From: a virus
Taxonomy: Duplodnaviria; Caudoviricetes
Direction: 5' to 3' (one strand)
Virus record (IMG/VR): IMGVR_UViG_3300025646_000056
Span: 1 to 53,261 of that record
DNA: 53,261 nt
The notes under the pieces are model-generated. The model was not told the origin of the DNA and searched no databases. It saw nothing but the letters and a program-made list of their open reading frames with translations. Below are positions 11,602-28,969 of this stretch, piece after piece. Numbering within the stretch: position 1 is the first letter of the stretch; each line of letters starts with the position of its first letter. The translations under genes were made by a program, and so were the position numbers.

Positions 11602-11991
11602 ATGCCGAATAGATTTACATCAACAGATTTAGATTTAAATTTTTCTGCTCATCCTGTTTCGGGAGATGTGTCAAAATTAACTGGCGTGAATGCGGTGAAA
11701 AAATCACTACAAAATATTGTCCTCATGAATGCTTATGAAAAACCATTTCATCCAGAAATTGCAGGTAATATAACCAACCTATTATTCGAACTGGAAAGTC
11801 CCTTCATCGAAGTTGACATTCGAGAACGATTGGAAAAACTCATAACAAACTATGAACCAAGAGTGAGAATCAGAGACATCAAAACAATATCCAACCCAGA
11901 AAAAAATTCATTAGATTTGAGAATATATTTTTCTATTGGAATTGGTGATGTCGTAGAATTAACCACCGTATCATTAGAGAGAATACGATAA
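11602..11991 (+). CDS. g25: baseplate wedge subunit gp25
   Basis: DLDLNFSAHP..AVKKSLQNIVL..EKPFHPE..NLLFE..NYEPRV. Confidence 0.95.
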   Translation: MPNRFTSTDLDLNFSAHPVSGDVSKLTGVNAVKKSLQNIVLMNAYEKPFHPEIAGNITNLLFELESPFIEVDIRERLEKLITNYEPRVRIRDIKTISNPEKNSLDLRIYFSIGIGDVVELTTVSLERIR

Positions 11992-13841
11992 TGTCTAAAA
12001 ACACTTCACTACCAATTGACAGTCTTGAGTTTGATGATATCAAGAACAATTTAAAATCATACTTACAATCTCAAGATGTTTTTAGTGATTACAACTTCGA
12101 AGGTTCTGGTTTAAATATTCTTTTGGATATTTTAGCATACAATACTCATTATCAAGCATTCTATAATAATATGGTAATTTCGGAATCGTTTATTGACAGC
12201 GCTACAAGGCCTGATTCTATATTTTCTTTGTTGAAACTCTTAAATTATCTTCCCCAGTCAACTCTGTCTTCCAAAGCAAAAGTTACTATTTATTATAGTG
12301 ATGTCACTGGTCAGACGAAACCATTTAACAATGCAATTTTACCAGAGAAAAAAATATTCACCACGACTGTTGATTCTACTACTTACAATTTTACAAATCC
12401 AAAGTCAGCTCAATTTGTTCCCTGTTCGTTCGATGCAAATGGAAATGCAACCGAATGGGTGGCAAAAGATGTAGAGATAGTGCAAGGAACATTCTTCTCC
12501 ACTGATTATATTTTTGATAACTTGGTTTCTAGAAGATATAAAATTCCTAATGCGTTTAGTGACAATCGTTATCTTAGAGTTTATATCAAAGATTCTGAAG
12601 AAGATAATAATTCAATCTCAAACGAATGGAAAAGATCAGATTCGCAGTTGACACTCGACGGAGAAAGTAAAGTATACTTCATCCAACGAAGTTTTGATGG
12701 ATATTATGAGATAGAGTTTGGTGATGATGTATTTGGAAAAAGACCAAATGTGGGTGATGTCATTTCGATTGAATATTTGGTTTCGAAGGGCGATGAAGCA
12801 AACGAAATCGGAAAAAATGACCGATCAGGGAATAGAACATTTTCATTATCATCTGAAGGTGTTGGATATGAAGTTGTTGTTCAGGAAAAAGCCACAGGTG
12901 GAGCAAAGAAAGAAACTTCTGCATTTGCGAAGAAAGTAGGACCACTTTATTTTCAATCACAAAACAGGCTTGTTACTCCACAGGATTATAGAACAGAAAT
13001 TCTTAGACAGTTTCCTCAAATAAAATCTCTGCTTGTTTATGGTGGGGAAGACGCAGTTCCACCTCAGTATGGAAAGGTTTTTGTTGTAGCAAATACAAAA
13101 ACTTCAGTACCGTTGTCTATTCAGGAAAAAGAAGGAATTATTCGTAATATCATAAAGAAGAAAAACATAGTTGGAATCATTCCAGAGTTTATTCCTGTTG
13201 ATTACACATATGTTCGACTGAATCTTGATGTCTTATACAATGACGAATATACTTCTCTTTCATCCGATGCGGTCAAATCTATTATCAGAAATCTGATACA
13301 AGAATACACAGACAATGCACTTGAGGATTTTGGTTCAAGTTTTAGAGGGTCTACAGTTATTCGAGACACAATAGAATCAGAACCTTCAATCGTGTCGGTG
13401 AATCTTTCAACCGGAATGGAAAAACGAATAGACCCATCTTCTTTCTTGAATATTAAAAAGGACTATGACGTAGTTTTCCCAGGCGGCATTCAAAAGAAAT
13501 CATCTGGTTCGAGTATAGAAAGTAATGTGTTTGTTGCAAATGGTGTTCGATCCTATCTCAAAGATAATGGATCGGGAATCGTACAGTTGTACTATATTGA
13601 TGGTCGAGGAAACCAAGTTGTAAGTCAATCAAATATTGGCACGATTAATTATGATAAAGGAACAGTTGTTATCAAACAACTGAAAGTAGAAAGTATTCCA
13701 AATGATTCTTACATAAGAATATATGCTTCATCTAAAACTAACGACATAGAAGTTGTAAGAAATCAAATACTCTCGATCGACGAAAACGATCCAACTTCAG
13801 TGAACATTACTATAAAATTATCAGACGACATACCAGCTTGA
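11991..13841 (+). CDS. g6: baseplate wedge subunit gp6
   Basis: LEFDDIKNNLK..DYNFEGSGL..LLDILAYNTHY..ESFIDSA; QNRLVT..DY; YGGED..PPQYGKVF. Confidence 0.96.
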   Translation: MSKNTSLPIDSLEFDDIKNNLKSYLQSQDVFSDYNFEGSGLNILLDILAYNTHYQAFYNNMVISESFIDSATRPDSIFSLLKLLNYLPQSTLSSKAKVTIYYSDVTGQTKPFNNAILPEKKIFTTTVDSTTYNFTNPKSAQFVPCSFDANGNATEWVAKDVEIVQGTFFSTDYIFDNLVSRRYKIPNAFSDNRYLRVYIKDSEEDNNSISNEWKRSDSQLTLDGESKVYFIQRSFDGYYEIEFGDDVFGKRPNVGDVISIEYLVSKGDEANEIGKNDRSGNRTFSLSSEGVGYEVVVQEKATGGAKKETSAFAKKVGPLYFQSQNRLVTPQDYRTEILRQFPQIKSLLVYGGEDAVPPQYGKVFVVANTKTSVPLSIQEKEGIIRNIIKKKNIVGIIPEFIPVDYTYVRLNLDVLYNDEYTSLSSDAVKSIIRNLIQEYTDNALEDFGSSFRGSTVIRDTIESEPSIVSVNLSTGMEKRIDPSSFLNIKKDYDVVFPGGIQKKSSGSSIESNVFVANGVRSYLKDNGSGIVQLYYIDGRGNQVVSQSNIGTINYDKGTVVIKQLKVESIPNDSYIRIYASSKTNDIEVVRNQILSIDENDPTSVNITIKLSDDIPA

Positions 13842-13848
13842 GGTTTAA

Positions 13849-16800
13849 ATGACTAACTATAATCGAAATAAAATCTCAACATCAGTTCCAGAAAATCTGC
13901 CGGATTTTGTTGTTGAGCAATATCCAAAGTTTGTTACATTTGTCGAAGAATATTACAAGTGGTTAGAATCACAGGATAATGCTTATTTTGCACCATTAAG
14001 TTTGAATGGTTTGGTAGATTTAGATACTACTGTAAATGATTTTGTTGATTATTTTAAATCTTATATCTTTCCAAAGTTCCCAGAAAAAAATAAATCAAGT
14101 AAAGGTGATGAACTTGATGTACGGATCACACTGAAAAAGATTCGTGATTTTTATCAAGCAAAAGGAACAAAAGATTCTATAAAGTTTTTGGTTAGATTGC
14201 TTTTTGATGTTTACTCTGAAATATATGTTCCATCCGAGGATATCTTTGTTGCATCTGGAGGTAGATGGGATCAACCGAATATTATTCGATGTCTAGACAC
14301 AAACCCTGCCAGAAATTCTACTCTCAGAAATCTTAGAATATCTTTTTATGATTCAAATGGTAATTCAACTGGGTCTGCTAGAATCAAAGACCTAAAGCAA
14401 TTCAGTAGGAATGGCAAACAGATAATAGAATTTGATTTGATAGAAATAATTGGTAATGTTGTTTATCCAGGCACGATGAGAGCAAAAACTAATCAGGGTG
14501 AGAATATAAACATTTCTTTGATTAGTATGGTGGATAAAATCACGGTTTCTTCCAAGGGTTCTAATTATTCTCTCGACGATACGATAGTAATTTCAACAAC
14601 CTCTGGTTATTCTGGTGTATCTGCGAAGGCTTCTGTTCAGTCTTTAGACAAAAACGGAGGTATTCGATCGATTCGAATTGATGATCCGGGTCTGTTTTAC
14701 TTTCCAATTAACAACCTTTTGCTTCATTATACTTTCGATGTGACTAGTCAGACAGGAACTGGTGCGAGTGGTTTCGAAATTTATACTTCACCCCTTGTCA
14801 AAAAACCAGGCGTTTATCAAAATAATGACGGACAGCTTTCATCCACCGAGAAACTACAAGATAACTTTAGATATCAAAAACATTCTTATGTTGTTCGAAC
14901 AGAAGCCAACCTAAATGAATATAAGAATACCCTACGGGATCTTGTTCACCCCGCAGGAAAATTGTTACTTGGTGATTATTTTGTTTATAGAAACCACCAA
15001 ATACCATTGGATGCTGCTGGTTTTGGATTGTTCTGTGTTCAAGAACCATTCTTTGCTAATTATTTCCCGTATAGTATTGCAACACTCGAAGATGGTGCTA
15101 CAACTGAAGTTGGAGCGTTTGGTATTCTTCCTTCAGACTTTGACCTTCGAGGTGTTTCGACAGAAGGATTGCAAGGTTCTAATCAAGATCCTCCTTTCTA
15201 TTTTGATTATTTTCCTTTTGGATATGATGGAACAACTGGGTATACGATTGCAGACGAAGAAAGTGCGAGGTCATTACTCGGTGATGGTATTTCTTCTGGG
15301 TGGAATGTCCAAAACTTTAATAGATTCGGTGGTCAAGGAGCCACTTTAGAATTCTTTGCACGAAAGAGAATCAACAAAGCGATTATAAATTTCTATCAAG
15401 AACAAAATGATAATACTGGTTTTTATAATCATCAAAATAATGCTTTTTCTGTTGGAGAATTTGTACATCAAGGAGAAGATGGTCCAAATCAGGCAAGAGG
15501 TAGAGTTCTGAAGTGGAGAGGAAATCCTCTTGCGAGCACTCCTGGCACTCTTACGGTTGAAGTCCTTAATGGTGAATTTGTAACTGGAGTAGACCCAGAT
15601 CAAATACCAACAGGAAATACTCTCGGGTGTATTGCATATGGACTCACTCAGGGAGAAGCATATACAGGCGGCGGAAACCTAAAAAGCATCATTCAATTCT
15701 GGACAGGTGATACCGCTTCTATTCATAATGAGAATGCGTTTTCGCCTGGAGATGTTGTTTATGAATACAACTCTTCCAGTGATGGACCGCCAAGAGGAAC
15801 CGTTCTTGGTTGGAGCGGTGGTACTTACGGAACACTTACTATTCAACTCACAAGATCACCAAACGGAATTCCAGCAGAATTCAGTGGTGATACCGATCCT
15901 GATAACTCAAACTACACAAATAGAATTTCTTTCGTGACAAATGGAGGAACGGCATACACAGGCGGTGGCGTCCTTGAATCTCTTATAACTTTCAGAACAG
16001 GCGGAAATACACACGCTGATGATGCTTTCACGATTGGTGCTACAGTTTCTCAAGGAGATGCTCAGGGAGTAGTTATAGGGTGGACTGGTGGTACTTACGG
16101 GCAACTTACACTCGAAGTAGTTACTGGTGATTTCCAAACAACAACAACTTCAACTGATCCTTTATCCGAATTTACCACAAACCATGAAGAAAAGATAATT
16201 TTAGGAGCCGATGGTTCAACATACACGGACGGGGGAAACGACAGAGCAATAATTGCGTTCTGGAATGGATTAACGAATCACTCTCCTTCTGCCTTTACCG
16301 TGGGAGAAAAGGTCCATCAAGGCGAGTTTGGAGACGATCAAGCAAGAGGAACAGTTATAGGATGGATTTCGGCTTCGGCTGCTCTGACTCTTAGGGTAGA
16401 TAATGGTTCCTTTAGAACCGGAACTGAAGGTGAAGTTCCAACTGATGTCACTACTGGGTGTATAGTTTTTGGTGAAACCACGGGAATCCCATACACAGCA
16501 GGTGGTTCTTCAGATGGAAACTCTGGAGGGTATGTAATAGCTCTTCTATCGACTGAAAATTTTTACAACGGGGGAATCGTCGAAAGTGTAGTAGGATTGC
16601 CCGGACATTCTGGTGGTCATATCTTATCGGTGCAAACTGAACCATATAATTATGGTGGATTTGTAACAAATCTTGTTGAATCATATTCACTTGAATATAC
16701 TGGATCAACTTTGCCTGGATGGCCTTCAGATAATAATGATTTTTGGATTGTTCACCCTCATCCAAATACATGGCATAAAAATGTATCAGAAGGAACCGGT

Positions 16801-17055
16801 TGGGGCGATATTACGATTGGTGATTTTATAAAGAGCTCTGCTAAGTTAACTTCACCTCCTATTCGTGATTTTGAATGCGATTCGACACAAACATCAAATG
16901 ATTTTTTTTTTACTCAACCAATGACTTCTCCTAATATCATTTCGTATGATCTAACGGGCGAATTCGTAGAAGAACCATTCAGTCTTACATATGATATTGA
17001 GAGTCCTACTTCATATACACTGAGAAATGAGTGGCATATCCTTCCACCAGAATGA
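13849..17055 (+). CDS. g7: baseplate wedge initiator gp7 with repeated inserted modules
   Basis: LPDFV..YPKFVTFVEEYYKWLE, FYQAKGT..LLF, KLQDN..YQKHSYV..LVHPAG; follows g6. Confidence 0.85.
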   Translation: MTNYNRNKISTSVPENLPDFVVEQYPKFVTFVEEYYKWLESQDNAYFAPLSLNGLVDLDTTVNDFVDYFKSYIFPKFPEKNKSSKGDELDVRITLKKIRDFYQAKGTKDSIKFLVRLLFDVYSEIYVPSEDIFVASGGRWDQPNIIRCLDTNPARNSTLRNLRISFYDSNGNSTGSARIKDLKQFSRNGKQIIEFDLIEIIGNVVYPGTMRAKTNQGENINISLISMVDKITVSSKGSNYSLDDTIVISTTSGYSGVSAKASVQSLDKNGGIRSIRIDDPGLFYFPINNLLLHYTFDVTSQTGTGASGFEIYTSPLVKKPGVYQNNDGQLSSTEKLQDNFRYQKHSYVVRTEANLNEYKNTLRDLVHPAGKLLLGDYFVYRNHQIPLDAAGFGLFCVQEPFFANYFPYSIATLEDGATTEVGAFGILPSDFDLRGVSTEGLQGSNQDPPFYFDYFPFGYDGTTGYTIADEESARSLLGDGISSGWNVQNFNRFGGQGATLEFFARKRINKAIINFYQEQNDNTGFYNHQNNAFSVGEFVHQGEDGPNQARGRVLKWRGNPLASTPGTLTVEVLNGEFVTGVDPDQIPTGNTLGCIAYGLTQGEAYTGGGNLKSIIQFWTGDTASIHNENAFSPGDVVYEYNSSSDGPPRGTVLGWSGGTYGTLTIQLTRSPNGIPAEFSGDTDPDNSNYTNRISFVTNGGTAYTGGGVLESLITFRTGGNTHADDAFTIGATVSQGDAQGVVIGWTGGTYGQLTLEVVTGDFQTTTTSTDPLSEFTTNHEEKIILGADGSTYTDGGNDRAIIAFWNGLTNHSPSAFTVGEKVHQGEFGDDQARGTVIGWISASAALTLRVDNGSFRTGTEGEVPTDVTTGCIVFGETTGIPYTAGGSSDGNSGGYVIALLSTENFYNGGIVESVVGLPGHSGGHILSVQTEPYNYGGFVTNLVESYSLEYTGSTLPGWPSDNNDFWIVHPHPNTWHKNVSEGTGWGDITIGDFIKSSAKLTSPPIRDFECDSTQTSNDFFFTQPMTSPNIISYDLTGEFVEEPFSLTYDIESPTSYTLRNEWHILPPE
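15376..16690 (+). repeat. four approximately 90-aa repeated modules plus four short closing segments in gp7
   Basis: Each module reads I.F..H...AF..G..V....rG.V..W....LT.....F....YT.GG; DNA GGTGGTACTTACGG recurs in modules 2 and 3. Confidence 0.85.
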
Positions 17056-17065
17056 GGAATCAATA

Positions 17066-18715
17066 ATGTATTTCTATGATTACAACTACGATGACCAACA
17101 GGGAGAAAAGTATAATGAAATTTATACTTATGATAAAACATGGAACGAATCAAGTTCAGCTAATAGACAAAAAGTAACAGGTGTTAATCTGGAAAATTTT
17201 TGGATTGATAAGTATGGACAAGATTTTTGTCCATATAGATCAGTGGGATACAGTGACATTGGATTTCGAAAACCAAATCAAAAAAGAGTAGGTGGAATTT
17301 CTATTGGTCAACCCGGTTCTTCTCCTTTAGAATATACTAATGGTTCACATCCTCGTTATATTCATTTTGGAAACAGATTAGTTGGTGTCTGTGGTCATTG
17401 TATGTCAAGTGTTGGTCTTCCCACTGGTAAAGCTGTATTTTTTAAATCTGACGGAACAGCAATAACATATGATATAGAAAATTGGCAACCTGCAAATGAC
17501 GTAGCATCGCAAACAGCTTTTATTCAAAATCCAGTAAATTTAACTTTTTCTTTTGGTGATTTTAGAATGTTTCGTTTAACATCAGATCCAGAACTAGATG
17601 GTATTCCTGCTGTGAAAAAAATGTTTGGATTTAGCAGTAGTGCAATTATGGCAAATCAATTATACCATCTTGGTCTTGGATTATTTATGCCAGGAATCGG
17701 AAATAATGGAGCTGGCGGACTTTTTGGTGGTGGACAAAGAATTGTTTGGTCTGGTGACTCTGGTACTCAGAAGTATATTAAAACAGATGATGGATGGTTT
17801 ATGACTTCGGCGGTAGGATCTGGACCCCCTTCAAATATCATGTCTACGTTGAATCTAGTGTCCGAAACAACTGATTATGAGGAGATTGCACCTTCTACTA
17901 AAAAATATTATGTAATGGAACAACTACAAGATTATACTCCATCAATAAATCAACAAAACAATAGTACTTTTTATGATTTTAAACTACAATCTAAATTATT
18001 TGCTGATAATGAATTTGGATCTTCGTCTAAACTATCAAATATAATAACAATGAAGAAAAAGTTCGGAGATGCTCCTTCGTTTAATCCAAATATATCGCCT
18101 GAACTGGAAATTGGAACTTTTTTTGGTTCAGGACTTACTCTTTATATAAACCCTGAAGGAAATTCAACTGTATTCTCTCCACTTCAAAATAATATGTATT
18201 CTGCAAATCAACCAAGTTCATCTCAAGTATCATATATCATGAACGATGGAAATGTTCTAGGAGATGGTTCAAATCTTCAAAACACAGATGTTTTTATTCC
18301 ATATGCAGGTGAAACTGGATCATTGGTTTGGGAAGTTACAAACCCTTGGGGAATGGATTCTGTTTCCTCTATAATTGATATTGTGGCTTTGGATCCACTT
18401 GTATACACCTATGGTTATGATCCATTAACTAAAGTGTTTTCTGGTACTGTTTCGGGTGGTACTGATTTTGATTTATCTATTCCTCCACAAATAAGTATTT
18501 TTTATTCTTTTTCGAGTGGAGCAACTGCATCAACAGTCACTGAAGAAACATTCAATTTAGAAATAGATATGTCCGATTTCGATACATTATATGGAGTGAC
18601 TCTCGGTGAATCTTTTATAGCTTATGGATCTGTAACGAGTCGGGTAAATGAGAATCAAAACATAAGTAGTACCGTTTATGGTGAATATACTTATGGTGGA
18701 TTGTTACCGAGTTAA
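17066..18715 (+). CDS. putative virion trypsin-like (PA clan) serine protease
   Basis: VGVCGHC, GDFRMFRL and SGDSGT occur in His-Asp-Ser order; likely start is ATG 17066 after a GAGG SD (track start 17027 overlaps g7). Confidence 0.6.
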   Translation: MYFYDYNYDDQQGEKYNEIYTYDKTWNESSSANRQKVTGVNLENFWIDKYGQDFCPYRSVGYSDIGFRKPNQKRVGGISIGQPGSSPLEYTNGSHPRYIHFGNRLVGVCGHCMSSVGLPTGKAVFFKSDGTAITYDIENWQPANDVASQTAFIQNPVNLTFSFGDFRMFRLTSDPELDGIPAVKKMFGFSSSAIMANQLYHLGLGLFMPGIGNNGAGGLFGGGQRIVWSGDSGTQKYIKTDDGWFMTSAVGSGPPSNIMSTLNLVSETTDYEEIAPSTKKYYVMEQLQDYTPSINQQNNSTFYDFKLQSKLFADNEFGSSSKLSNIITMKKKFGDAPSFNPNISPELEIGTFFGSGLTLYINPEGNSTVFSPLQNNMYSANQPSSSQVSYIMNDGNVLGDGSNLQNTDVFIPYAGETGSLVWEVTNPWGMDSVSSIIDIVALDPLVYTYGYDPLTKVFSGTVSGGTDFDLSIPPQISIFYSFSSGATASTVTEETFNLEIDMSDFDTLYGVTLGESFIAYGSVTSRVNENQNISSTVYGEYTYGGLLPS

Positions 18716-18744: not shown

Positions 18745-21174
18745 ATGACCAATCTACAGTTTTCGTTTAATGTATCAGCAGCTCAATCATTTCTTAATGA
18801 TTTTTCATCAAAGAATGATTCTTACTATATGATGATTTCAAGACCTCAAGCATGGGTCAATGATGATATTCCTCCTGCCGTTGTAGATTCGGTTTCTGAA
18901 CAAGTTGACTTGTGGAAAAACTGTATTGCTGCCAAGAAAATAAATTCAGAGAATGTTCGTCTTGTAATAGACAGACATGACTGGGAATCTGGTGCTGTGT
19001 ATTCGCAGTTTTCTGATATTCAGGAAATTTTTAGATCCGTCACATACGATAATCAACCATTTTATGTAATGAACTCACAATACAAAGTGTACAAGTGTTT
19101 AGATAATAATGGTGGTTCTCAGTCCACAGTAGAACCAACACACACATACGCTGACATACAAACACCAGGCGCAGACGGATATGTGTGGCAATTCATGTAT
19201 CAATTATCAGAAAGTGATTTTGATTTTGTAACCGATGGATTTATCCCAGTTTCTCTTGCTGGATCTACCACTAAAATCGGAACCATTGAATACTTGCAAA
19301 GAGAAGTTCAAGAAAATGCAAGAGGTGGTGCTATATTTAATGTGAGGGTAAATCAGACAGGAAGTTACTGGCAAGATGCTAGAATATTAAAAGGTGGAAA
19401 GACTGTCGAAGATTTCTTCGTAAAACACAAAATAACAAACATAGAAAATGATCAAGAGTATTATGTAAATTCCGAGGGAGTGACATATGATGTCGCTAGG
19501 TTCTCAGCTGCTGGAATGAATTCTTTTTCTAAAGACTATTATCGTGGTTGGGCAATCACAGATTATGACATGGGTACATCGACGGGTGTTCCAAGCTTCG
19601 ATTATAGTGTCATTGGTTACTATAAGAAAATAATTGGAAACAGTGGTGATTTTGTTTACACGTCTCGATTCGAATCTGATCCAGAAACAACTCAAGGGTA
19701 TTATAATATAGTTCCTTATGTTTTCATTACAAACGGAACAGGTTCAACTCAAGAAACGAATGTAATCGTGGCTCCTGTGTTTGATGATGTTGTTGGTTCT
19801 ACTGATACTAGTTTAATACGAGACAACGAATTAACTGTGTTAGAATCTAAAAAGATAACTAGAGTCAGAACACTAGATCCCGGATCCGATGTGTATCAAC
19901 CTTTTGTTTTGGTGTCCCCTACACCTTCGGGATTAAATTCCGGTGCAGGGTTCAATGCTGACGCATTTGCTTCTCCGCTAGGTGGTCATGGATCAAATGC
20001 GGTGGAAGAATTGGGTGCAAATAAAGTAATGATTCGAGTTCTTCTCAAAGGTTCAGAATCAGGAGCTTTTGATGTTCAAAATGATTTTAGACAATTCTCT
20101 ATTATAAAAAACCCTCACAATTCAGGATGGACTTCAGATGTGGTCGAAGGTTCTGTTGCGGGTTCAAAGACACCAGACTATACAATATTGAATGTGAGAA
20201 ATGATCTGAATACCGTTTTGATTGATATGGCTAGCACATTACAACACTCACAAAGTGCCTTCACTATAGGTCAAAAAGTCCATCAGGGAGAATATAGCCT
20301 TAATCAAGCACGGGGAACAGTTTTGAAATGGATAGGAGGAGTCGCTGGACAACTCACACTATCGGTTGATAATGGAAAATTTAGAAGTTGTACACCTGAA
20401 GAGATTTCAACAACATCTGGTAGAATCTTTTATGGCGAAACAACAGGAACCGCCTATACAGGAGGAAGTGCTGGACCTTTTGGTGGATTTATTGATTCGG
20501 TCGTAACCAACAAATCTTTTGTGAATCAATCTTACCCAGAAGGATCTCTGGTATATGGTCTTGATTCTGGTTCTACAGGAAAGGTAGTATCATGGAGATC
20601 AGAATCTGACGGGGAACGAGGAACTTTAACTCTTCGAAATGTTGTTGGAGATTTTATTCCTCCAAGAGTAGCACTAGGAACCCAGTTGGACGGTGAACCA
20701 GTTTTTGGTTTTAGTGTCTCCTCAAATGGAAACTATAGCATATCAAATACACCGGTTTCAGTTATCACTAAGATAACCAAAGAACCAGTCACAGTTGATG
20801 AATCACATCGTCTCACCAAAAAGATTACATCGTTCTTTTCAGATCCAACATTCCAGTTAACTCCAAGTTTATTGGATCAACCATTGAAGAAGGAAAATGG
20901 TGTTTTCAACTCTACAATCGTGAGTATGAATTATACTGATGGAGTTACCTCTGGTGTTGATGGAAGTACGGTAGATTTTTATGTGACTTCAGTTTCTGGG
21001 TCATTAACAGGAGGGGATGTTTTAAATCTTTCTGGATTTACATCCTCATACATTTCAGGTTTAGAACCCGAATTTTTACCATACACCGGACAAGTGTTAT
21101 ACATAGAGAATGTAAGACCTGTACAAAGAAACTCAGATCAAGACGAAGAAATCAAACTCGTCATTGACTTCTAA
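18745..21174 (+). CDS. g8: baseplate wedge subunit gp8
   Basis: FYVMNSQYKVYKCLDNNGG, DGYVWQFMY, GGHGSNAVEELGA, NDFRQFSIIKNP, GQVLYIENVRP..R..DQDEEIKLVIDF. Confidence 0.93.
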   Translation: MTNLQFSFNVSAAQSFLNDFSSKNDSYYMMISRPQAWVNDDIPPAVVDSVSEQVDLWKNCIAAKKINSENVRLVIDRHDWESGAVYSQFSDIQEIFRSVTYDNQPFYVMNSQYKVYKCLDNNGGSQSTVEPTHTYADIQTPGADGYVWQFMYQLSESDFDFVTDGFIPVSLAGSTTKIGTIEYLQREVQENARGGAIFNVRVNQTGSYWQDARILKGGKTVEDFFVKHKITNIENDQEYYVNSEGVTYDVARFSAAGMNSFSKDYYRGWAITDYDMGTSTGVPSFDYSVIGYYKKIIGNSGDFVYTSRFESDPETTQGYYNIVPYVFITNGTGSTQETNVIVAPVFDDVVGSTDTSLIRDNELTVLESKKITRVRTLDPGSDVYQPFVLVSPTPSGLNSGAGFNADAFASPLGGHGSNAVEELGANKVMIRVLLKGSESGAFDVQNDFRQFSIIKNPHNSGWTSDVVEGSVAGSKTPDYTILNVRNDLNTVLIDMASTLQHSQSAFTIGQKVHQGEYSLNQARGTVLKWIGGVAGQLTLSVDNGKFRSCTPEEISTTSGRIFYGETTGTAYTGGSAGPFGGFIDSVVTNKSFVNQSYPEGSLVYGLDSGSTGKVVSWRSESDGERGTLTLRNVVGDFIPPRVALGTQLDGEPVFGFSVSSNGNYSISNTPVSVITKITKEPVTVDESHRLTKKITSFFSDPTFQLTPSLLDQPLKKENGVFNSTIVSMNYTDGVTSGVDGSTVDFYVTSVSGSLTGGDVLNLSGFTSSYISGLEPEFLPYTGQVLYIENVRPVQRNSDQDEEIKLVIDF

Positions 21175-21188
21175 GGAGCGAGATAAAT

Positions 21189-24100
21189 ATGCCTTCATAC
21201 GATCCAGACCTGACATCAGGTGATCCATACTACGACGATTTCGATGGTACTAAAAATTATCTGAAAATTTTGTTCAAGCCTGGATTTGCTGTTCAAGCTA
21301 GAGAACTTACTCAACTCCAAACGGTCTTACAAACACAAATCGAAAGATTTGGAAACTTTGTATTTAAAAATGGAACTCCTGTTTACGGATCTGGTCTTAC
21401 AGAAAAAAGCATATCTTTCGTCAGAGCTCAAAGTCTATCTGATGCGAATGTTTCTGCAATCGTTGGTGATGTTGTAACTGGAACCGGAGACAAGGCAAAT
21501 CTTCGTGCAAAGGTAATCAAGGCGGAAACTGGTTTATCATCTGGATCAGATACATTCCCAGTATTATTTTTGCAGTATCTAAGTGGTGGTGGTACAGCTG
21601 GAGATTTCTTCACGATCAACGATGAAGTATACAGTGAAAATCAAGATATATCATTCAATGTGAAAGAAAATGAAAATGATCTGATTGCTGCGACAGGCGA
21701 TGCACTGGCATGCTCTATTGACTCTGGTATATTTTATGTTGATGGATTCTTCGTTTATATAAATCCACAGACTGCAATCCCATACAGACTTTCTGAAGAA
21801 AATGAAATTGAAAAACCATCAGCGTTAGAAATTGGGTTCGAGTCTGGAGCTCCCGATGGCGTTCGATTATACCAGTACCCAACCAACAGAGTTGGTCTTC
21901 AGATTAACAAACAAGTTATTGATGCGTTCGATGATGCTACACTAACAGACCCATCTCGCGGATCTTATAACTATTCGGCGCCTGGTGCGGATCGGTATCA
22001 AGTTGATCCAGTGTTCACTTCCAAAGTATTGAACATAACAACAAACACCCCAAGTGAATTTATTGATGAAGATTTTGTCGATGTCCTTCGAGTCGAAAAT
22101 GGAATTGTTACCAGACGATACAACAGAACAGAACTTTCAGGTTTAGAAGATACTCTTGCAAGACGAACATATGATGAGTCTGGAAATTATACGGTAAGAC
22201 CTTTTAATGCAAGTGTATTGAATCATCTTAGAACTGACAAATATCAAGTTGATGTTACACTTACATCGATAAGTGAAATATTCTCTCAGGGTGACATTAT
22301 CTTTGGTTCTGGTTCTACCGCAGAAGTTCTTGATGTTCTTGATCGAACAAACTATGTCGGTGCAACAGCCCAACGACTCATTGTTGACATGCAAACTGGT
22401 CGGTTCGATGAACAAGACACCATAGTTGAAACTGGAGTTTCTCCTGCAGCGGGTGGTGTGATGACCAAGGTACAATTCCTTCCAGATGCGACTGGTGTAT
22501 ATTCTACAGAGCAAGGAGGAACGGCTGATAAACTAGCGGTTTCCATTAACCCAGGCAAAGCATATGTTTTCGGTTACGAGTTCGAAACACAATCCCCAAC
22601 CAACATCGAAACAGATAGAGCAAGAACAGATGATTCTCTCCAAGGAATCGATCTAAATGCTATTGTTGGTAATGCGATGATTGCAGAAACCGATTACCTC
22701 CCTGCAAACGATGAAGCTATCAAATATTCAGGAAACAGATTTGACAACTATCCGTTTGACAATACAACAACAATTCTCGGAGCTGCTGGTCCATTTAGTT
22801 ACAACAATTTCCCGCAGGTTGATTTGAAATCAGATTATGTTCAAATCAATATTCCATATAGAGCAAATGAATCTGCTAGAGCAAAGATCAATTACTGGGC
22901 TCCTCTTTTTGCCACCGAACACAATGCAAACTACGATAGCGCTTTGGTTCTTAGTAATTTTTCTTCAGCAACTCTTGCATCCTCATCCGATTCTCTGGTA
23001 GTTGGTCAAAACTCTGGAGCATATTACTTACCAACAGTAGCCACTGATGGCGGATATTCTACGATTGGTCAAGGTGTTGATTTTGCTCCAAATGAAAAAC
23101 TCGACAGGTATTTGCAGAAAATAGTTTTTAGTGAAGGTTATAGAAGTACCGCTAGGTATTCAACCTTTAGGGGACTAGATCATGCTGCTGATGCTGGTTA
23201 TAACCAGATTTATGGTGATTTTATGGGTGAGGTCGCAGAACAAGGAGCTACCTGTGCTGCCCTTCGACAGATTTTCTTAGGAAACATAGATCAAAGCGTG
23301 GGTGAAGGTGTTGGTCCAAGTGCATATCTTAGATCAGCTGGTATTGCAAGAAGATGGATTCCAGCAGGAACTGTTGCGAATAGAAGAAATAGTTCATTGA
23401 TAATTCAGTCTGCTGGTCCTGGCGGATTTTCCAAGGCCGGAAATGTTATTCAACAGGGATGGGCTGGTATCTCTGGAACCACTCAGAATTGTACCCCAAA
23501 TGCTTACGGATCTAGTATTCGAAGCATCGTGAACAAAAGCGTTTATGCGATTCGAGTGGGGGATGGATATCAAAACGATAGTGTACCATACAACGAAACA
23601 TTAAACTTTGCTGTTGGTGAAGTCGTCAGACAATTCCAATATGGTGTTACGAACGATGCCTCAGCTGGTGGATTTGAAATAGCTGGAGGTTTGTATACAA
23701 ATCCAAATGATCTCCAAGAAGCAATCGGTGAAGTTCTCGCATGGGTATTGACTTCTTCTGGACCTGTAGTTTACATTGAGCTCGTATCTGGAGATGTTCC
23801 ATTCTTACCAACATGCGGGTTTAATTCGTCTTCATATCCCGGAATCATTCCGACATCATTCAAAACATCATGCCCTAATAAATTTGTTGGGTTTATTGAC
23901 AGTGTTTCAACTGAAATTCCAGAAAACGGTGGGGAAACAATCGATTATGTATTGACGTATGGAGCAATTGATGGAACAGATCAAACTCTTGACGTTCAAG
24001 AAATTATTTTCGATGCGGACGATAACGGAATTTTACAAAACGGTTATTTGAATCTGATGCAAGATGATGTGATCGATGGTATTCCCAATTCAGATTTTAA

Positions 24101-27100
24101 TCCGGGTTCACCTGCAATATCTGGGAAGACGGTAGAAGGAATTGTAGAAGACGGATATGTTTCTGACAATTACAAGCATGGACAATATGTTCTTCAGTTC
24201 ACATATAATGACTGGGTTGACACAGTTTTGTCTTATGATGATTATATCAATAACGCGGATATAATCAACAAGGGCGTGGTTGTAAGTTGGGATCCAAGTC
24301 AGAACAAATTAATCACATCACTGTGTGATGGATTCCAAGGATTCCAAAGAGATTTAGGTTACATCTTTGGTCTATACGATCACACATGCGACAATAAGTT
24401 TGTTGCTTATGGTGCAAATGGAATTGCTTCGAACTCTACCGTTCTTTCAGACTTTTCAGCGATAGTCGATCTCAAGGACACATATAATGTAACAACGAAA
24501 AACTTTGTAGGGTTTGGAAGTTATATCGAAGGCGAAACCGCTTCTCAGTTGTTACAGTCCAAGAGTAATTTTGTCCCAGGCCGTTACTATACCGTCGGCG
24601 AATCTGTTGTTCAAGCTGTACCGGGTGGAACTCCAACTGGGTATGCAACTGGTGTGGTTGAATCCTTTTCTGCTAGGGATTTAGGAAATTCTGGTGACAC
24701 TCAAGACACTGTTCTTCTTATAAAGACCAATCCGGGTCCAACATTTGAAGTTGGATTTAATGCCTCTGGAATATTGGAAGGTACTGTTTCAAACGGGGTT
24801 TATGTTAAGAGTCCTACTGGTAGGATTACAACAAACACAAGTGCGTATGGATTAAGTAAATCATTCTTTAGTGGTCATCTGGGAACAGGTGGAAATTCTT
24901 CAGACCAATACTACAAAAACGTGCCAGTAACAATAGGTAACGCAAGAATTAGACAGATCCGTGAACTGTCAAACGATGCACACATAGTATCTTTCTTTGA
25001 TGTAAATATGTTCAACAAGAGAGAAAATAAGAGTTTCTTCTTGAGTGAAACAAAGAGTGTCTACTATGGATACGCTAAGAATTCTGATGCAGTTGGTCCC
25101 GACAACACATTTGGCGGCAAACTTTTCGATATACATCCAAATTATCTTGGTAGAGTTTATAACCCAGATAAAACTTCATTAATGTTTGAGGTTCCTGTCG
25201 GTGATGTTGTGAAGTCTATAAATTCTATGGACTACAGAGCGATTAAAGAATTTACAATAGACTTTGGTGTAAATACAGAAACGTCGATTTCGAGTGGAAA
25301 TTCTCTTCTTAGATTTGTGGGCGGAGGAAGTTCTGGTGGTGTGGTTGACGGTGTTGACCTGAACAATTACATCATGATAGACAACGACGGAAAGATCATG
25401 GATCTTCTTTCTGATGCGTTCACTCTTCGAACCAACAATACAGATTTTGGTGATTTTGGAAAACTTACCATCACCAAAAATCAAGGCGGTGGTACTGGAA
25501 CATTCCCAACAACAACTCGATTCTCCTTGATTGCTTCTCTGGATGTTAACCCAGGCGAAAATATTCAATCAAGTCCAATTCGATTCAAGAAACTGAAAGA
25601 ATTCACAGAAACATTTGCTTCTGGTGATATTAAAACAACCAAGGATGGACAAAAATACTTCGAGTTGTCAAATAATGATATCTATAGTTTCATCGATGCT
25701 TATGATAATGGTGTGGGACTTACCGCAGATGTTTACGACAAATTCACTCTTGACAATGGCCAGAGAGATAATCTGTACACAAGAGGTAGACTATATCTAA
25801 TCAACAATGGTCTTTCTGATTTTGGTTCAACAACAGATGTATCATTTGGAAATGCTAATTTTGTAACACCAGTAGAAGTGACATATCGTTACTTTGAACA
25901 CAGTGGAGTTGGTCCTTTCGTTGCCGAATCGTATATTAACGAAACTCCTCAACAATCTGACGAGTTGAAATTCACATTCGATGATATTCCAGTTTATGTT
26001 TCTCCAAATTCAGGAGAAGTTACTCGTCTGAATAAGGTAGTAGACTTCAGGCCATCGTTTAACGGTACAAACTTCACCGATGTTTTCCTACCAGCAAGTG
26101 GTCAAGCATTCAATATATCATACTCATACTACCTGCCTCGAATTGACCGGTTGGTGGTTACAAGAGATAAAAACTTTAAGATCATTAAGGGTGTTCCGGC
26201 TCTTGATCCGAAATCACCAGACGATGTAGTTGATGCGATGGAACTCTACAAATTCTATATTCCTGCTTACACATATAATCCAAAGGATGTCGTTTCCAAG
26301 TTCATAGAGAACAAACGATTCACAATGAGGGATATTGGTAAGTTGGAGAAGAGAATCGAAGAGATTGAATACTTCAGTACCCTTTCATCTCTCGAACGAG
26401 AAACAGAAGCCTTGTTTGTGAAAGATGCGAATGGTAACGATAGATTCAAGAATGGAATTATTGTAGATCAATTCACTGGTCACGATATTGGTGATGTTCA
26501 AAATCCAGATTACAATATCTCGATCGATTTTGAGAATCAAGAATTGCACCCACCATTCTCCTCAAGAAATGTTGACTTTGATGTTCTCACCCTCAACAGT
26601 TTGCATAAGACAACAGACAATCTAGTCATGTTGCCGTTTACAACCGAAACTCTGATCACTCAACCACTTGCAACCAATACTGCAAACTTGAATACATTCG
26701 GAGCACTGAACTGGTTGGGTCAAGTTGTTCTCGATCCACCTCTCGATAACTGGTACGATCTGAACCAAAATCCAGATGTTCTAATCAACGTCGAAGGCGA
26801 AAACGATGCTTGGGAGAACTTAGGATCCAAAGCATTCGGAACTAAGTGGAACGATTGGCAGTCGTCTTGGTCTGGTGTCGAATCAAGAATCGATAAGGCA
26901 AAACTGCCAAGCAAGGACAAATCCAAGAGAGTAACAAAAACAACTGTTCAGAAAGATCGAAACGGAATTACAAACAAAGCAGTTCCTGACAGAGTTCTAA
27001 ACAAAGTCGGAAACAGAATAGTTGATACGAGTATCATTCCATTCGTTCGTTCAAGAACGGTAAACGTGACAGCTACAAACATGCGACCCAACACAAGGGT

Positions 27101-28748
27101 TTATGTTTTCTTTGATGGTGTTGATGTAAGTGAACATTGTACCTTTGTCAAGTCTTCTCAGACTGTAAGACTGATTGACGAACCACTAATCACAGATTCA
27201 AATGGTGATATCAATAAGTCTGTTCAACTTAAGTTTACAATTCCCGCTGGTCAATTCCGAACAGGAAAGAAATTACTGAGACTAACCGATAGTCCTTCAA
27301 ATGCAGTATCTTCTACAAAGACAGCCGCAGAAACTATTTACTCTGCACAAGGAATCGTAGACTCTGACGATTTGACCTCAATCGCAACTCGTTTGCCTCA
27401 TATCGTAAGAAACGGCGTAAATGAAGATAGAATTCTAACAACTGAAGGGTCAAGAATTGCAAGAGATCCTCTTGCTCAAACATTCAAGATCATGGAATCT
27501 CTTTACCCTGAAGGTGTGTATGTCAGGAGCGTATCAGTTTACTTCAAGAAGAAGTCATCAACCCTTCCTGTCACTCTCCAACTTCGTCCTACGATCAATG
27601 GATATCCAAACAGCAATACAGTGTATCCTTTCGCAGAAGCCGTGAAAAAGGCTTCGGAAGTTAATGTAAGTGAAACACCTGATGTTGCTGATATTGGAAG
27701 TGCAACAACATTCACTTTCTCTTCACCTGTTCATCTTCTGCCAGGAGAACACTCTATTGTTCTTCTCTCAAACAGTGATGAATACGAAACATACATTTCA
27801 ATCATGGGTGAGAACCAAATCGGTACAGAAATTCCAGTAACGGAACAACCAAACACAGGTGTTCTTTATCGATCACAAAACGCTGGAACATGGGCGGCTG
27901 ACAAGAACGCCGATCTCATGTTCAAGATCGAGAAATGTGTGTTCGATTCTTCTGGACTCAATACTCTGACCCTCAAGGAAAGAAAGGGTTCTGATAACTA
28001 CACAGGATCAGTAAAGATAGACTCGTTCAATCTGAATGCAGGAGTAATCAACTGGCCAAGTTCACGCTACGAACTCAAAATGCGATTTACTCCAAACAGC
28101 GCACTCAATGTTTCTGCTTCCAGTACGGAATATCCTGTAACAGTGAACGAAACAGTTTCTCTTCGTGAATCTAAGAAGGTAAATCTTGCAAATGCGGATA
28201 CCAACAACACCTTGATTCTAAATGCTTATATAATCGGAGAAAGTTCTGATGTTTCTCCCGTCTTTGATTTGAATAGAGCTTCTTTGGTGTGTGTAGAAAA
28301 TAGAATCGAAGGAAATAAGGACACATCTAGAGGTGGTCAAGGATATAACGGAGAACTTGACGCGAAGGCTCCTCCGATATTAAGTGGGTCCGTGCCAAGA
28401 GCAAGATATATCACTCGACAAGTAAACCTCGAATCTGGTTTTGGTTCTTCGAATGTCAAAGTTATTCTGAATCAATATAAACCAACTGGTTCTGATATAC
28501 AAGTATTCGTGAAACAACAAGCAGAAGGAGATGACACTCCATTCGAAAATGCCGAATACCTAAAACTGACTCCAAATTATACAGAAAACTTGGATGGATA
28601 TCGTCAAGTCGAATACACACTGGACGAAGATTTAGCAGAACCAATGGGTCGATTTGCAATCAAAGTTTGTTTGTATGCTGACGGAGCTCCTGTGAATACT
28701 GCGGTAGTCCCACTAGTCAAAGATATGAGAGTGATTGCGTTAGCATGA
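21189..28748 (+). CDS. large baseplate/tail structural protein (VrlC / DUF4815-like)
   Basis: PYYDDFD..ILFKPGFAVQARELTQLQT, APGADR, LARRTYDESGNY, NKRFTMRDIGKLEKRI..EYFSTLS.LE, RFKNGIIVDQF, DPLAQTF, KDMRVIALA. Confidence 0.9.
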   Translation: MPSYDPDLTSGDPYYDDFDGTKNYLKILFKPGFAVQARELTQLQTVLQTQIERFGNFVFKNGTPVYGSGLTEKSISFVRAQSLSDANVSAIVGDVVTGTGDKANLRAKVIKAETGLSSGSDTFPVLFLQYLSGGGTAGDFFTINDEVYSENQDISFNVKENENDLIAATGDALACSIDSGIFYVDGFFVYINPQTAIPYRLSEENEIEKPSALEIGFESGAPDGVRLYQYPTNRVGLQINKQVIDAFDDATLTDPSRGSYNYSAPGADRYQVDPVFTSKVLNITTNTPSEFIDEDFVDVLRVENGIVTRRYNRTELSGLEDTLARRTYDESGNYTVRPFNASVLNHLRTDKYQVDVTLTSISEIFSQGDIIFGSGSTAEVLDVLDRTNYVGATAQRLIVDMQTGRFDEQDTIVETGVSPAAGGVMTKVQFLPDATGVYSTEQGGTADKLAVSINPGKAYVFGYEFETQSPTNIETDRARTDDSLQGIDLNAIVGNAMIAETDYLPANDEAIKYSGNRFDNYPFDNTTTILGAAGPFSYNNFPQVDLKSDYVQINIPYRANESARAKINYWAPLFATEHNANYDSALVLSNFSSATLASSSDSLVVGQNSGAYYLPTVATDGGYSTIGQGVDFAPNEKLDRYLQKIVFSEGYRSTARYSTFRGLDHAADAGYNQIYGDFMGEVAEQGATCAALRQIFLGNIDQSVGEGVGPSAYLRSAGIARRWIPAGTVANRRNSSLIIQSAGPGGFSKAGNVIQQGWAGISGTTQNCTPNAYGSSIRSIVNKSVYAIRVGDGYQNDSVPYNETLNFAVGEVVRQFQYGVTNDASAGGFEIAGGLYTNPNDLQEAIGEVLAWVLTSSGPVVYIELVSGDVPFLPTCGFNSSSYPGIIPTSFKTSCPNKFVGFIDSVSTEIPENGGETIDYVLTYGAIDGTDQTLDVQEIIFDADDNGILQNGYLNLMQDDVIDGIPNSDFNPGSPAISGKTVEGIVEDGYVSDNYKHGQYVLQFTYNDWVDTVLSYDDYINNADIINKGVVVSWDPSQNKLITSLCDGFQGFQRDLGYIFGLYDHTCDNKFVAYGANGIASNSTVLSDFSAIVDLKDTYNVTTKNFVGFGSYIEGETASQLLQSKSNFVPGRYYTVGESVVQAVPGGTPTGYATGVVESFSARDLGNSGDTQDTVLLIKTNPGPTFEVGFNASGILEGTVSNGVYVKSPTGRITTNTSAYGLSKSFFSGHLGTGGNSSDQYYKNVPVTIGNARIRQIRELSNDAHIVSFFDVNMFNKRENKSFFLSETKSVYYGYAKNSDAVGPDNTFGGKLFDIHPNYLGRVYNPDKTSLMFEVPVGDVVKSINSMDYRAIKEFTIDFGVNTETSISSGNSLLRFVGGGSSGGVVDGVDLNNYIMIDNDGKIMDLLSDAFTLRTNNTDFGDFGKLTITKNQGGGTGTFPTTTRFSLIASLDVNPGENIQSSPIRFKKLKEFTETFASGDIKTTKDGQKYFELSNNDIYSFIDAYDNGVGLTADVYDKFTLDNGQRDNLYTRGRLYLINNGLSDFGSTTDVSFGNANFVTPVEVTYRYFEHSGVGPFVAESYINETPQQSDELKFTFDDIPVYVSPNSGEVTRLNKVVDFRPSFNGTNFTDVFLPASGQAFNISYSYYLPRIDRLVVTRDKNFKIIKGVPALDPKSPDDVVDAMELYKFYIPAYTYNPKDVVSKFIENKRFTMRDIGKLEKRIEEIEYFSTLSSLERETEALFVKDANGNDRFKNGIIVDQFTGHDIGDVQNPDYNISIDFENQELHPPFSSRNVDFDVLTLNSLHKTTDNLVMLPFTTETLITQPLATNTANLNTFGALNWLGQVVLDPPLDNWYDLNQNPDVLINVEGENDAWENLGSKAFGTKWNDWQSSWSGVESRIDKAKLPSKDKSKRVTKTTVQKDRNGITNKAVPDRVLNKVGNRIVDTSIIPFVRSRTVNVTATNMRPNTRVYVFFDGVDVSEHCTFVKSSQTVRLIDEPLITDSNGDINKSVQLKFTIPAGQFRTGKKLLRLTDSPSNAVSSTKTAAETIYSAQGIVDSDDLTSIATRLPHIVRNGVNEDRILTTEGSRIARDPLAQTFKIMESLYPEGVYVRSVSVYFKKKSSTLPVTLQLRPTINGYPNSNTVYPFAEAVKKASEVNVSETPDVADIGSATTFTFSSPVHLLPGEHSIVLLSNSDEYETYISIMGENQIGTEIPVTEQPNTGVLYRSQNAGTWAADKNADLMFKIEKCVFDSSGLNTLTLKERKGSDNYTGSVKIDSFNLNAGVINWPSSRYELKMRFTPNSALNVSASSTEYPVTVNETVSLRESKKVNLANADTNNTLILNAYIIGESSDVSPVFDLNRASLVCVENRIEGNKDTSRGGQGYNGELDAKAPPILSGSVPRARYITRQVNLESGFGSSNVKVILNQYKPTGSDIQVFVKQQAEGDDTPFENAEYLKLTPNYTENLDGYRQVEYTLDEDLAEPMGRFAIKVCLYADGAPVNTAVVPLVKDMRVIALA

Positions 28749-28969
28749 CACATAAAAACTTCATAAATATCGAAGGTAGAACTGATTTGAAAAGAGATCC
28801 AAATTCTAAAGCCATTTTATCAAACAACAAAGATGCGTTTCTAGCCTATCAGGAAAAAAAGAAACAACAAGAAGAGTTGCAAAAAATAAAAGAAGAACAA
28901 GGATTTCTTCGTGAAGAACTCAATGAAATAAAAAATCTTTTACAGATATTGACCAGAGGAATTAACTGA
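28745..28969 (+). CDS. conserved small coiled-coil protein following the VrlC-like gene
   Basis: IEG..DLKRDPNSKAIL..ELNEIKNLL; ATGA overlap with the upstream gene. Confidence 0.8.
   Translation: MTHKNFINIEGRTDLKRDPNSKAILSNNKDAFLAYQEKKKQQEELQKIKEEQGFLREELNEIKNLLQILTRGIN

Follow-up and report, generated by a model that had tools for sequence, protein, structure and literature searches.

How a chain of repeated domains is arranged when all of it enters a protein at one point is the question raised by gp7, the predicted baseplate wedge protein encoded at 13849-17055 (+ strand; 1068 amino acids) of IMG/VR virus record IMGVR_UViG_3300025646_000056. The whole stretch of DNA analysed, here called the window, has 53,261 nucleotides; it is a 53-kb fragment from the record of an uncultured virus, about 29% complete by estimate. 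Residues ~507-943 of gp7 show four modules of ~90 amino acids, followed by four short segments with the pattern GGxhxShh, named closers in this work. A previous sequence-only reading had proposed a Russian-doll architecture, in which each module is inserted in the same loop of the preceding one and the closers complete the modules in reverse order. An out-and-back arrangement of some kind, with distal strands completing the modules, is probable in our analysis, and the strict nested fold of the array is slightly favoured. The fuller proposal, that a hitherto undescribed ~90-residue beta-barrel module was inserted into itself three times, with the same glycine-rich turn as the site each time, giving a four-level doll of one and the same fold and a double-threaded arm that evolves through recursion and comes and goes as a single cassette, is evenly balanced between being right and being wrong.

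According to the nested reading, gp7 of this T4-like marine myovirus would take up a cassette of ~437 residues in its C-terminal part, at a surface loop that is short and variable. The unit of the cassette would be a small beta-barrel module, of which the neighbouring wedge protein gp8 has one copy with its closer contiguous, and a complete module would consist of an N-terminal strand, a core that extends to the turn YTxGG, a loop of 5-7 residues and a closing strand GGxhxShh. Each further module would sit between the YTxGG turn and the loop plus closer of the preceding module. The chain would run outward through modules 1, 2, 3 and 4 and then back, with closer 1 completing module 4, closer 2 module 3, closer 3 module 2 and closer 4 module 1, and would re-enter gp7 beside its exit point. 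The product would be an elongated arm of four barrels at the periphery of the baseplate, each joint being crossed twice by the chain; this arm may be rigid and may be involved in decoration, adhesion or the support of another baseplate component.

The cassette (15367-16677, + strand) contains N-strands, cores and closers, four of each. Module 1 (15367-15675) shows the N-strand RINKAIINF and a core that ends in YTGGG, module 2 (15676-15969) shows NLKSIIQF and YTGGG, module 3 (15970-16236) VLESLITF and YTDGG, and module 4 (16237-16506) NDRAIIAF and YTAGG; all four are on the + strand, and in each of them a linker of 9-15 residues with a conserved His joins the N-strand to the core. The four turns are located at residues 605, 703, 792 and 882 (nucleotides 15661, 15955, 16222 and 16492), exactly where the sequence-only reading had placed them. 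A hidden Markov model (HMM) of the module recognised four domains in gp7, at residues 506-609, 608-707, 708-796 and 795-905, with independent E-values of 6e-36, 2e-26, 1.5e-24 and 2e-43, respectively; these scores are what they are by construction, because the HMM was made from these same sequences. Profile positions 2-111 were reached only by the fourth domain, the other three covering positions 2-95. Furthermore, gp8 carries module A (20197-20520, + strand; gp8 residues 485-592; independent E 3e-45), in which YTGG-SAGPF-GGFIDSVV is present at residues 571-587 as had been described, with GGFIDSVV as contiguous closer. BLASTP of gp8 against gp7 gave four high-scoring segment pairs with E-values of 1e-26 to 2e-11, and the five module copies, aligned over ~90 residues, show 37-48% identity to module 4 (47% in the case of gp8 module A). 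The four modules are thereby confirmed as true repeats. No tandem repeat at the DNA level was found in the array, the closers included.

The four closing segments downstream of module 4 were located at 16525-16677 (residues 893-943; + strand). Closer 1, GGYVIALL (16525-16548, residues 893-900), is contiguous with module 4, while closer 2, GGIVESVV (16570-16593, residues 908-915), closer 3, GGHILSVQ (16612-16635, residues 922-929), and closer 4, GGFVTNLV (16654-16677, residues 936-943), are the proposed last strands of modules 3, 2 and 1, respectively. Closers 2 to 4 were assigned by motif and closer 4 also by the insertion boundary, as it leads straight into the host sequence LVESYSLEYTG. The spacing from closer to closer is 15, 14 and 14 residues. 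There are six matches to the motif GGxhx[ASTN]hh in gp7, versus a mean of 0.033 and a maximum of 1 in 5000 residue shuffles. Two of the six are the strands immediately following modules 1 and 2, GGNLKSII (residue 608) and GGVLESLI (residue 706). The earlier statement that the next module begins immediately after the YTxGG turn agrees with the HMM boundaries, although these two strands look like closers too.

The cassette is absent from gp7 of 11 related contigs (L003/L016, L004/L009, L005, L006, L007, L008, L010, L011, L012, L013 and L015), whose proteins have 580-600 residues, lack modules, YTxGG and closers alike, and show 54-67% identity to the window gp7 on either side of the array. The junctions of the window read EFFARK-RINKAIINF ... 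GGFVTNLVESY-SLEYTG, and a module-less counterpart reads EFFARK-LVGG-SLEYTG; other module-less junctions read EFFGQFDDGEYTGS, EFLGKKGSSDVSANPYVGS and similar. The site in the module-less proteins is a variable loop of 4-12 residues between GATQEF(F/L) and (E/Q)YTGS. Judged from these junctions, residues ~507-943 are one insertion at a single point of a short variable surface loop in gp7. Since the insertion is at a single point, the ends of the array should adjoin in space, the chain leaving and returning at one place. A chain that runs out through four domains must return, and the return sequence on hand would therefore be the four closers with their linkers of 6-7 residues alone.

The same count of modules and closers had been predicted for homologues, and it holds in the two states that can be read: four modules and four closers in the three array-bearing gp7s (the window protein and its relatives P0004 and P0005, which show ~70% identity to it), and none of either in the 11 module-less contigs. 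These counts bear on a rival explanation in which the modules are four complete tandem domains, like beads on a string, and the GG-strands fold into a separate small beta-meander or sheet, or act as a strand zipper for the binding of another baseplate protein. We consider it unlikely. It agrees with the closers being a regular repeat of 14-15 residues; however, four modules and four closers would then require two separate matched duplication series, the closers show no tandem repeat in their DNA, and the closer segment appears to be part of the domain in module 4 and in gp8 module A. In addition, tandem domains at one loop point would still need a chain returning over some four domain lengths, and the closers cover exactly this distance.

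The arguments for the nested order are indirect, and one is obtained by removing the inner units on paper. Removal of the sequence from N4 to closer 1 leaves YTDGG-STENFYN-GGIVESVV, and the next levels give YTGGG-GLPGHS-GG... and YTGGG-TEPYNY-GG..., to be compared with the contiguous copies YTAGG-SSDGNS-GG of module 4 and YTGG-SAGPF-GG of gp8. The loops before the closers then have 6-7 residues, versus 5-6 in the contiguous copies. At the level of these motifs, the restoration of the canonical YTxGG-loop-GG pattern is as expected of nesting and supports it. Furthermore, N1 and the N-strand of gp8 have no preceding core, yet they show the motif and the His linker of N2-N4; the N-strands would therefore belong to the following core, which leaves modules 1-3 without a local closer. 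With linkers as short as these, closer 2 would hardly reach any module but module 3, which is fused to N4. From these observations we infer the pairing of closers with modules given above.

Two further comparisons concern the order of the pairing. Cores 1 and 4 and gp8 module A have HQGE..QARG in common, and a DNA repeat of 67 nucleotides at 70% connects modules 1 and 4; cores 2 and 3 have GWxGGTYGxLT in common, with a DNA repeat of 38 nucleotides at 79%. These core classes are mirrored by the closers: position 3 is aromatic in closers 1 and 4 (also in the gp8 closer), and xxxSV is common to closers 2 and 3. The match of classes would fit nesting, but it fits reverse and forward order equally. 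In the three orthologues, the invariant positions amount to 78, 88, 38 and 50% in N1 to N4, and to 38, 62, 88 and 75% in closers 1 to 4, closer 3 and N-strand 2 each having seven of eight residues invariant. The rank correlation of conservation is +0.8 for reverse pairing and −0.8 for forward pairing (n=4; p ~0.17, 4 of 24 permutations, counted by hand), a hint that may favour the reverse order.

Several observations count against the nested order and have to be set beside this evidence. The conservation argument consists of four pairs in three sequences. The counting rule is based on the 4:4 and 0:0 states, and no intermediate forms of gp7 (1:1, 2:2 or 3:3) were found in the databases searched. 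The strand that follows module 1 and that which follows module 2 fit the closer motif, and the one after module 3 does so more loosely. In P0007, a gp8 homologue, the loop before the closer has only ~1 residue, and a loop of zero length, with the N-strand of one module closing the module before it, would therefore be compatible with the known copies. In gp8 itself, GGFIDSVV stands at the N-strand place of a weak second module (BLASTP pairs it with GGNLKSII of gp7), and a strand shared by two modules is therefore conceivable.

These strands are the basis of a second rival explanation, in which N2, N3 and N4 close the preceding modules and closers 2-4 fill the vacant N-slots of modules 2-4, or adjacent open sheets share strands. 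The chain would still run out and back, and the array would not be a strict doll. The motif matches, the gp8 alignment and the nearly absent loop of P0007 are all in its favour, and eight strands for eight slots fit it equally well. We regard it as even less likely than the tandem arrangement: the motif and His linker of N1 and the gp8 N-strand, which lack a preceding core, assign the N-strands to the core that follows, and every closer keeps a loop of 6-7 residues such as that of the contiguous copies. In the model of module 4 described below, moreover, the N4 strand is within the block of residues 1-114 that structure alignments span (a statement about alignment span, not about contacts).

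The nested reading also makes a prediction on the fold, namely that closing strand 1 pairs with module 4 and closing strand 4 with module 1. AlphaFold2 on gp7 residues 485-965, with a three-row alignment, gave a mean predicted local distance difference test (pLDDT) score of 36.5 and a predicted template modelling score of 0.24, and the closer region had no strands; this is a further point against nesting. A second construct, with module 4 and all four closers and a 12-row alignment rich in paralogues, was modelled with a pLDDT of 67 overall and 75-89 in the core. Strands were predicted at model residues 6-11 (N4), 28-31, 39-47, 52-59 and 102-110 (closer 1), the 10-residue blocks that flank the closer 1 strand averaging pLDDT 53 and 63. 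A strand was placed at closer 1 with modest local confidence, and the model of the whole array shows no confident pairing. Closers 2-4 are mostly coil in this construct, with 10-residue blocks averaging pLDDT 42-55 and no confident domain of their own. Coil is what the nested model would predict for these closers in a truncated construct; on the other side of the balance, their low confidence may merely reflect the alignment, which has three rows there. In favour of the tandem arrangement, the whole-array model leaves the closers unattached to the modules, and closers 3 and 4 form short strands in the truncated model (model residues 135-137 and 146-149), though at a pLDDT below 50. A complex prediction of modules 3-4 plus closer 1 with closers 2-4, run without controls, gave scores of 0.01 and 0.19, the mark being 0.32; it is no evidence either way and would not discriminate between the nested and the shifted topologies. 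The single-point insertion, the 4:4 and 0:0 counts, the linker lengths, the match of classes and the conservation fit the nested reading, and no confident three-dimensional model pairs closers 2-4 with modules 3-1.

Structure comparisons were performed with the module-4 model. With Foldseek there was no match at E <= 0.001 in PDB or BFVD, and the ESM Atlas gave no usable one. The best VIA-align match was domain III of eIF2gamma (4zgn_B; Z 5.3, root-mean-square deviation 3.6, 75 residues, model range 1-114), and several baseplate wedge and triplex proteins matched at Z 3.6-4.7 (9f4a_AY, 8v3w_E, 8rk3_o, 7kh1_A5 and 9ki1_H). All matches are below Z 8, a range in which, according to the VIA-align guide, only a common arrangement may be seen, and some of them run over long discontinuous chain ranges, such as 122-686 of 9qgl_A. 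The model resembles small beta-barrels (eIF2gamma domain III and SelB; baseplate triplex or gp6-J-like proteins), and the resemblance does not amount to membership. No entry of the sandwich-barrel hybrid motif (SBHM) is among the structure matches listed, mostly weak barrel matches, and the module may yet have this fold. The predicted module is best called a small beta-barrel with no assigned family.

Sequence searches gave a narrow distribution. The module has no family in Pfam or PHROG, a search of PDB sequences with gp7 gave 0 matches, and neither tblastn of the module region against 50,697 GenBank phage records nor megablast of the gp7 gene against GenBank phages gave a match. PHD2, the best PDB candidate by profile (E 0.08), was judged a chance match. 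HMMER, run exhaustively over 1.84 billion representative proteins, gave five matches at E <= 0.001 (P0005-P0009), of which P0005 is a gp7 and P0006 and P0007 are gp8s; P0008 and P0009 were read and judged to be unrelated repeat proteins. Word-indexed searches contributed P0004 (gp7) and P0010 (gp8). Each of P0004 and P0005 shows four modules and four closers, and no further array-bearing protein was found in the protein searches. A first scan of IMG/VR with the array protein found no relative, and later scans of IMG/VR and JGI metagenomes with gp7 alignments gave module-less gp7s only; one later locus survey covered + strand open reading frames (ORFs) of at least 150 amino acids in loci L009-L066 only. 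Among the 1.84 billion representatives scanned, the module was found only in gp7 and gp8 of this small clade.

A maximum-likelihood tree of the N-terminal 500 amino acids of gp7 (12 rows, midpoint-rooted only) did not group the array-bearing proteins as a monophyletic set. P0004 is sister to the module-less gp7 of L010, with support 100/99, and the window gp7 and P0005 cluster with the module-less clade of L009, L005 and L008. None of 200 bootstrap trees needs a single array change only. Since array presence disagrees with the gp7 tree, the cassette would have been subject to repeated clean loss or recombinational exchange, always as a whole. This suggests that it was gained or lost as a unit more than once, gp7 being left intact.

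In gp8 the module is not restricted to contigs with the array. All 11 contigs with a module-less gp7 carry it in gp8, and module A was found in every gp8 of the clade examined; the family of gp8 module A is the likely source of the gp7 modules. In tblastn against GenBank phages, gp8 matched 520 records, mostly T4-like cyanophages of Synechococcus and Prochlorococcus, and none of them covers at least 80% of gp8. Among the 25 matches listed, coverage ends between residues 423 and 529, and the region of gp8 that carries the module therefore seems specific to this clade. The sequence-only reading had described the gp8 copy as single. One strong module is indeed present; however, BLASTP also aligns the gp8 segment after GGFIDSVV with gp7 module 2. 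The same reading had suggested that the gp8 copy may be inserted in another module; a second module gives only weak HMM matches, with independent E-values of 0.36-4.8, in six gp8 ORFs, and the segment after module A is possibly a diverged second barrel. The segment aligned with gp7 module 2, SYPEGSLVYGLDSGSTGKVVSW..., is at gp8 residues ~605-642 (window 20557-20670). A third stretch, for which the HMM match is weaker still, is at residues ~714-766 (window 20884-21042).

The principle of recursive nesting of one fold is already known from Si3 of the cyanobacterial RNA polymerase beta' subunit. Si3 consists of eight SBHMs inserted in the trigger loop, which form an elongated body of 150 A, and SBHM-2 to SBHM-5 include elements from distant parts of the chain (PMC10895346); it has been catalogued as a six-level recursive or nested architecture (PMC13114784). 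Si3 and the gp7 array are alike in that each is specific to a lineage, enters a host loop at one point and repeats a small beta fold in an arrangement other than plain tandem. They differ in host, a baseplate wedge protein of a phage in the case of gp7, and apparently in module, no SBHM being among the structure matches listed; the gp7 array would be more regular, with four levels and all closing strands at the end, and the topology of Si3 is solved while that of gp7 is inferred. "Russian doll" is an established term for contractile sheath proteins with domains inserted in one another (PMC6088184). The sheath proteins (T4 gp18, pyocin and diffocin) have domains that are mutual insertions, as gp7, also a contractile-tail protein, would have; the sheaths nest domains of different folds at two to four levels, whereas gp7 would nest the same module four times.

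If the array is nested, the novelty would lie in the module family, the phage baseplate host, the strict regularity with all closers gathered last, and gain and loss in the manner of a cassette. The array would be, after Si3, the second example in nature of a domain recursively inserted into its own copies, far more regular than the first, and it would be located in a virion protein for which it plausibly matters how long and how stiff a projection is. The history of nesting would be legible from the sequence alone, with the closing strands lined up at the end, and gp7 would offer a simple system for the folding of discontinuous domains and for the growth of peripheral arms on baseplates by gain and loss of a cassette. 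If the fold is not nested, the array is a clade-specific repeat insertion in gp7, ordinary among phage tail proteins.

The structural genes of the window show a T4-like order: gp6, gp7, an ORF of 562 amino acids and gp8. The gp6 gene (11991-13841) was assigned by PF21379 (63.7 bits) and PHROG 219 (E 2e-139), and gp8 (18745-21174, + strand; 809 amino acids) by PF09215 (44.7 bits) and PHROG 438 (E 2e-72). The gp7 protein matches PF23786 (Baseplate_wedge) at residues 7-43, with 35.7 bits versus a cut-off of 27, and PHROG 17744 (baseplate wedge subunit) at residues 7-281, with an E-value of 3e-43. These family matches, together with the place between gp6 and gp8, identify gp7 as a putative T4-like baseplate wedge protein. 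Thus, the N-terminal part of gp7, gp8 and the gp6-gp7-gp8 order of T4-type wedge proteins are all kept here, and the module, which lacks a sequence relative in Pfam, PHROG or PDB, is extra to the T4-type gp7 and gp8.

The 562-residue ORF between gp7 and gp8 (17027-18715, + strand) has a first ATG that overlaps the end of gp7. It showed no family match in Pfam or PHROG, and tblastn found no copy in any fetched locus. In all 11 related contigs gp8 directly follows gp7, without this ORF between them, and it may have come in together with the gp7 array. Directly 3' of gp8 there is an ORF of 2519 amino acids (21189-28748, + strand), followed by one of 972 amino acids (28969-31887); both encode putative large structural proteins.

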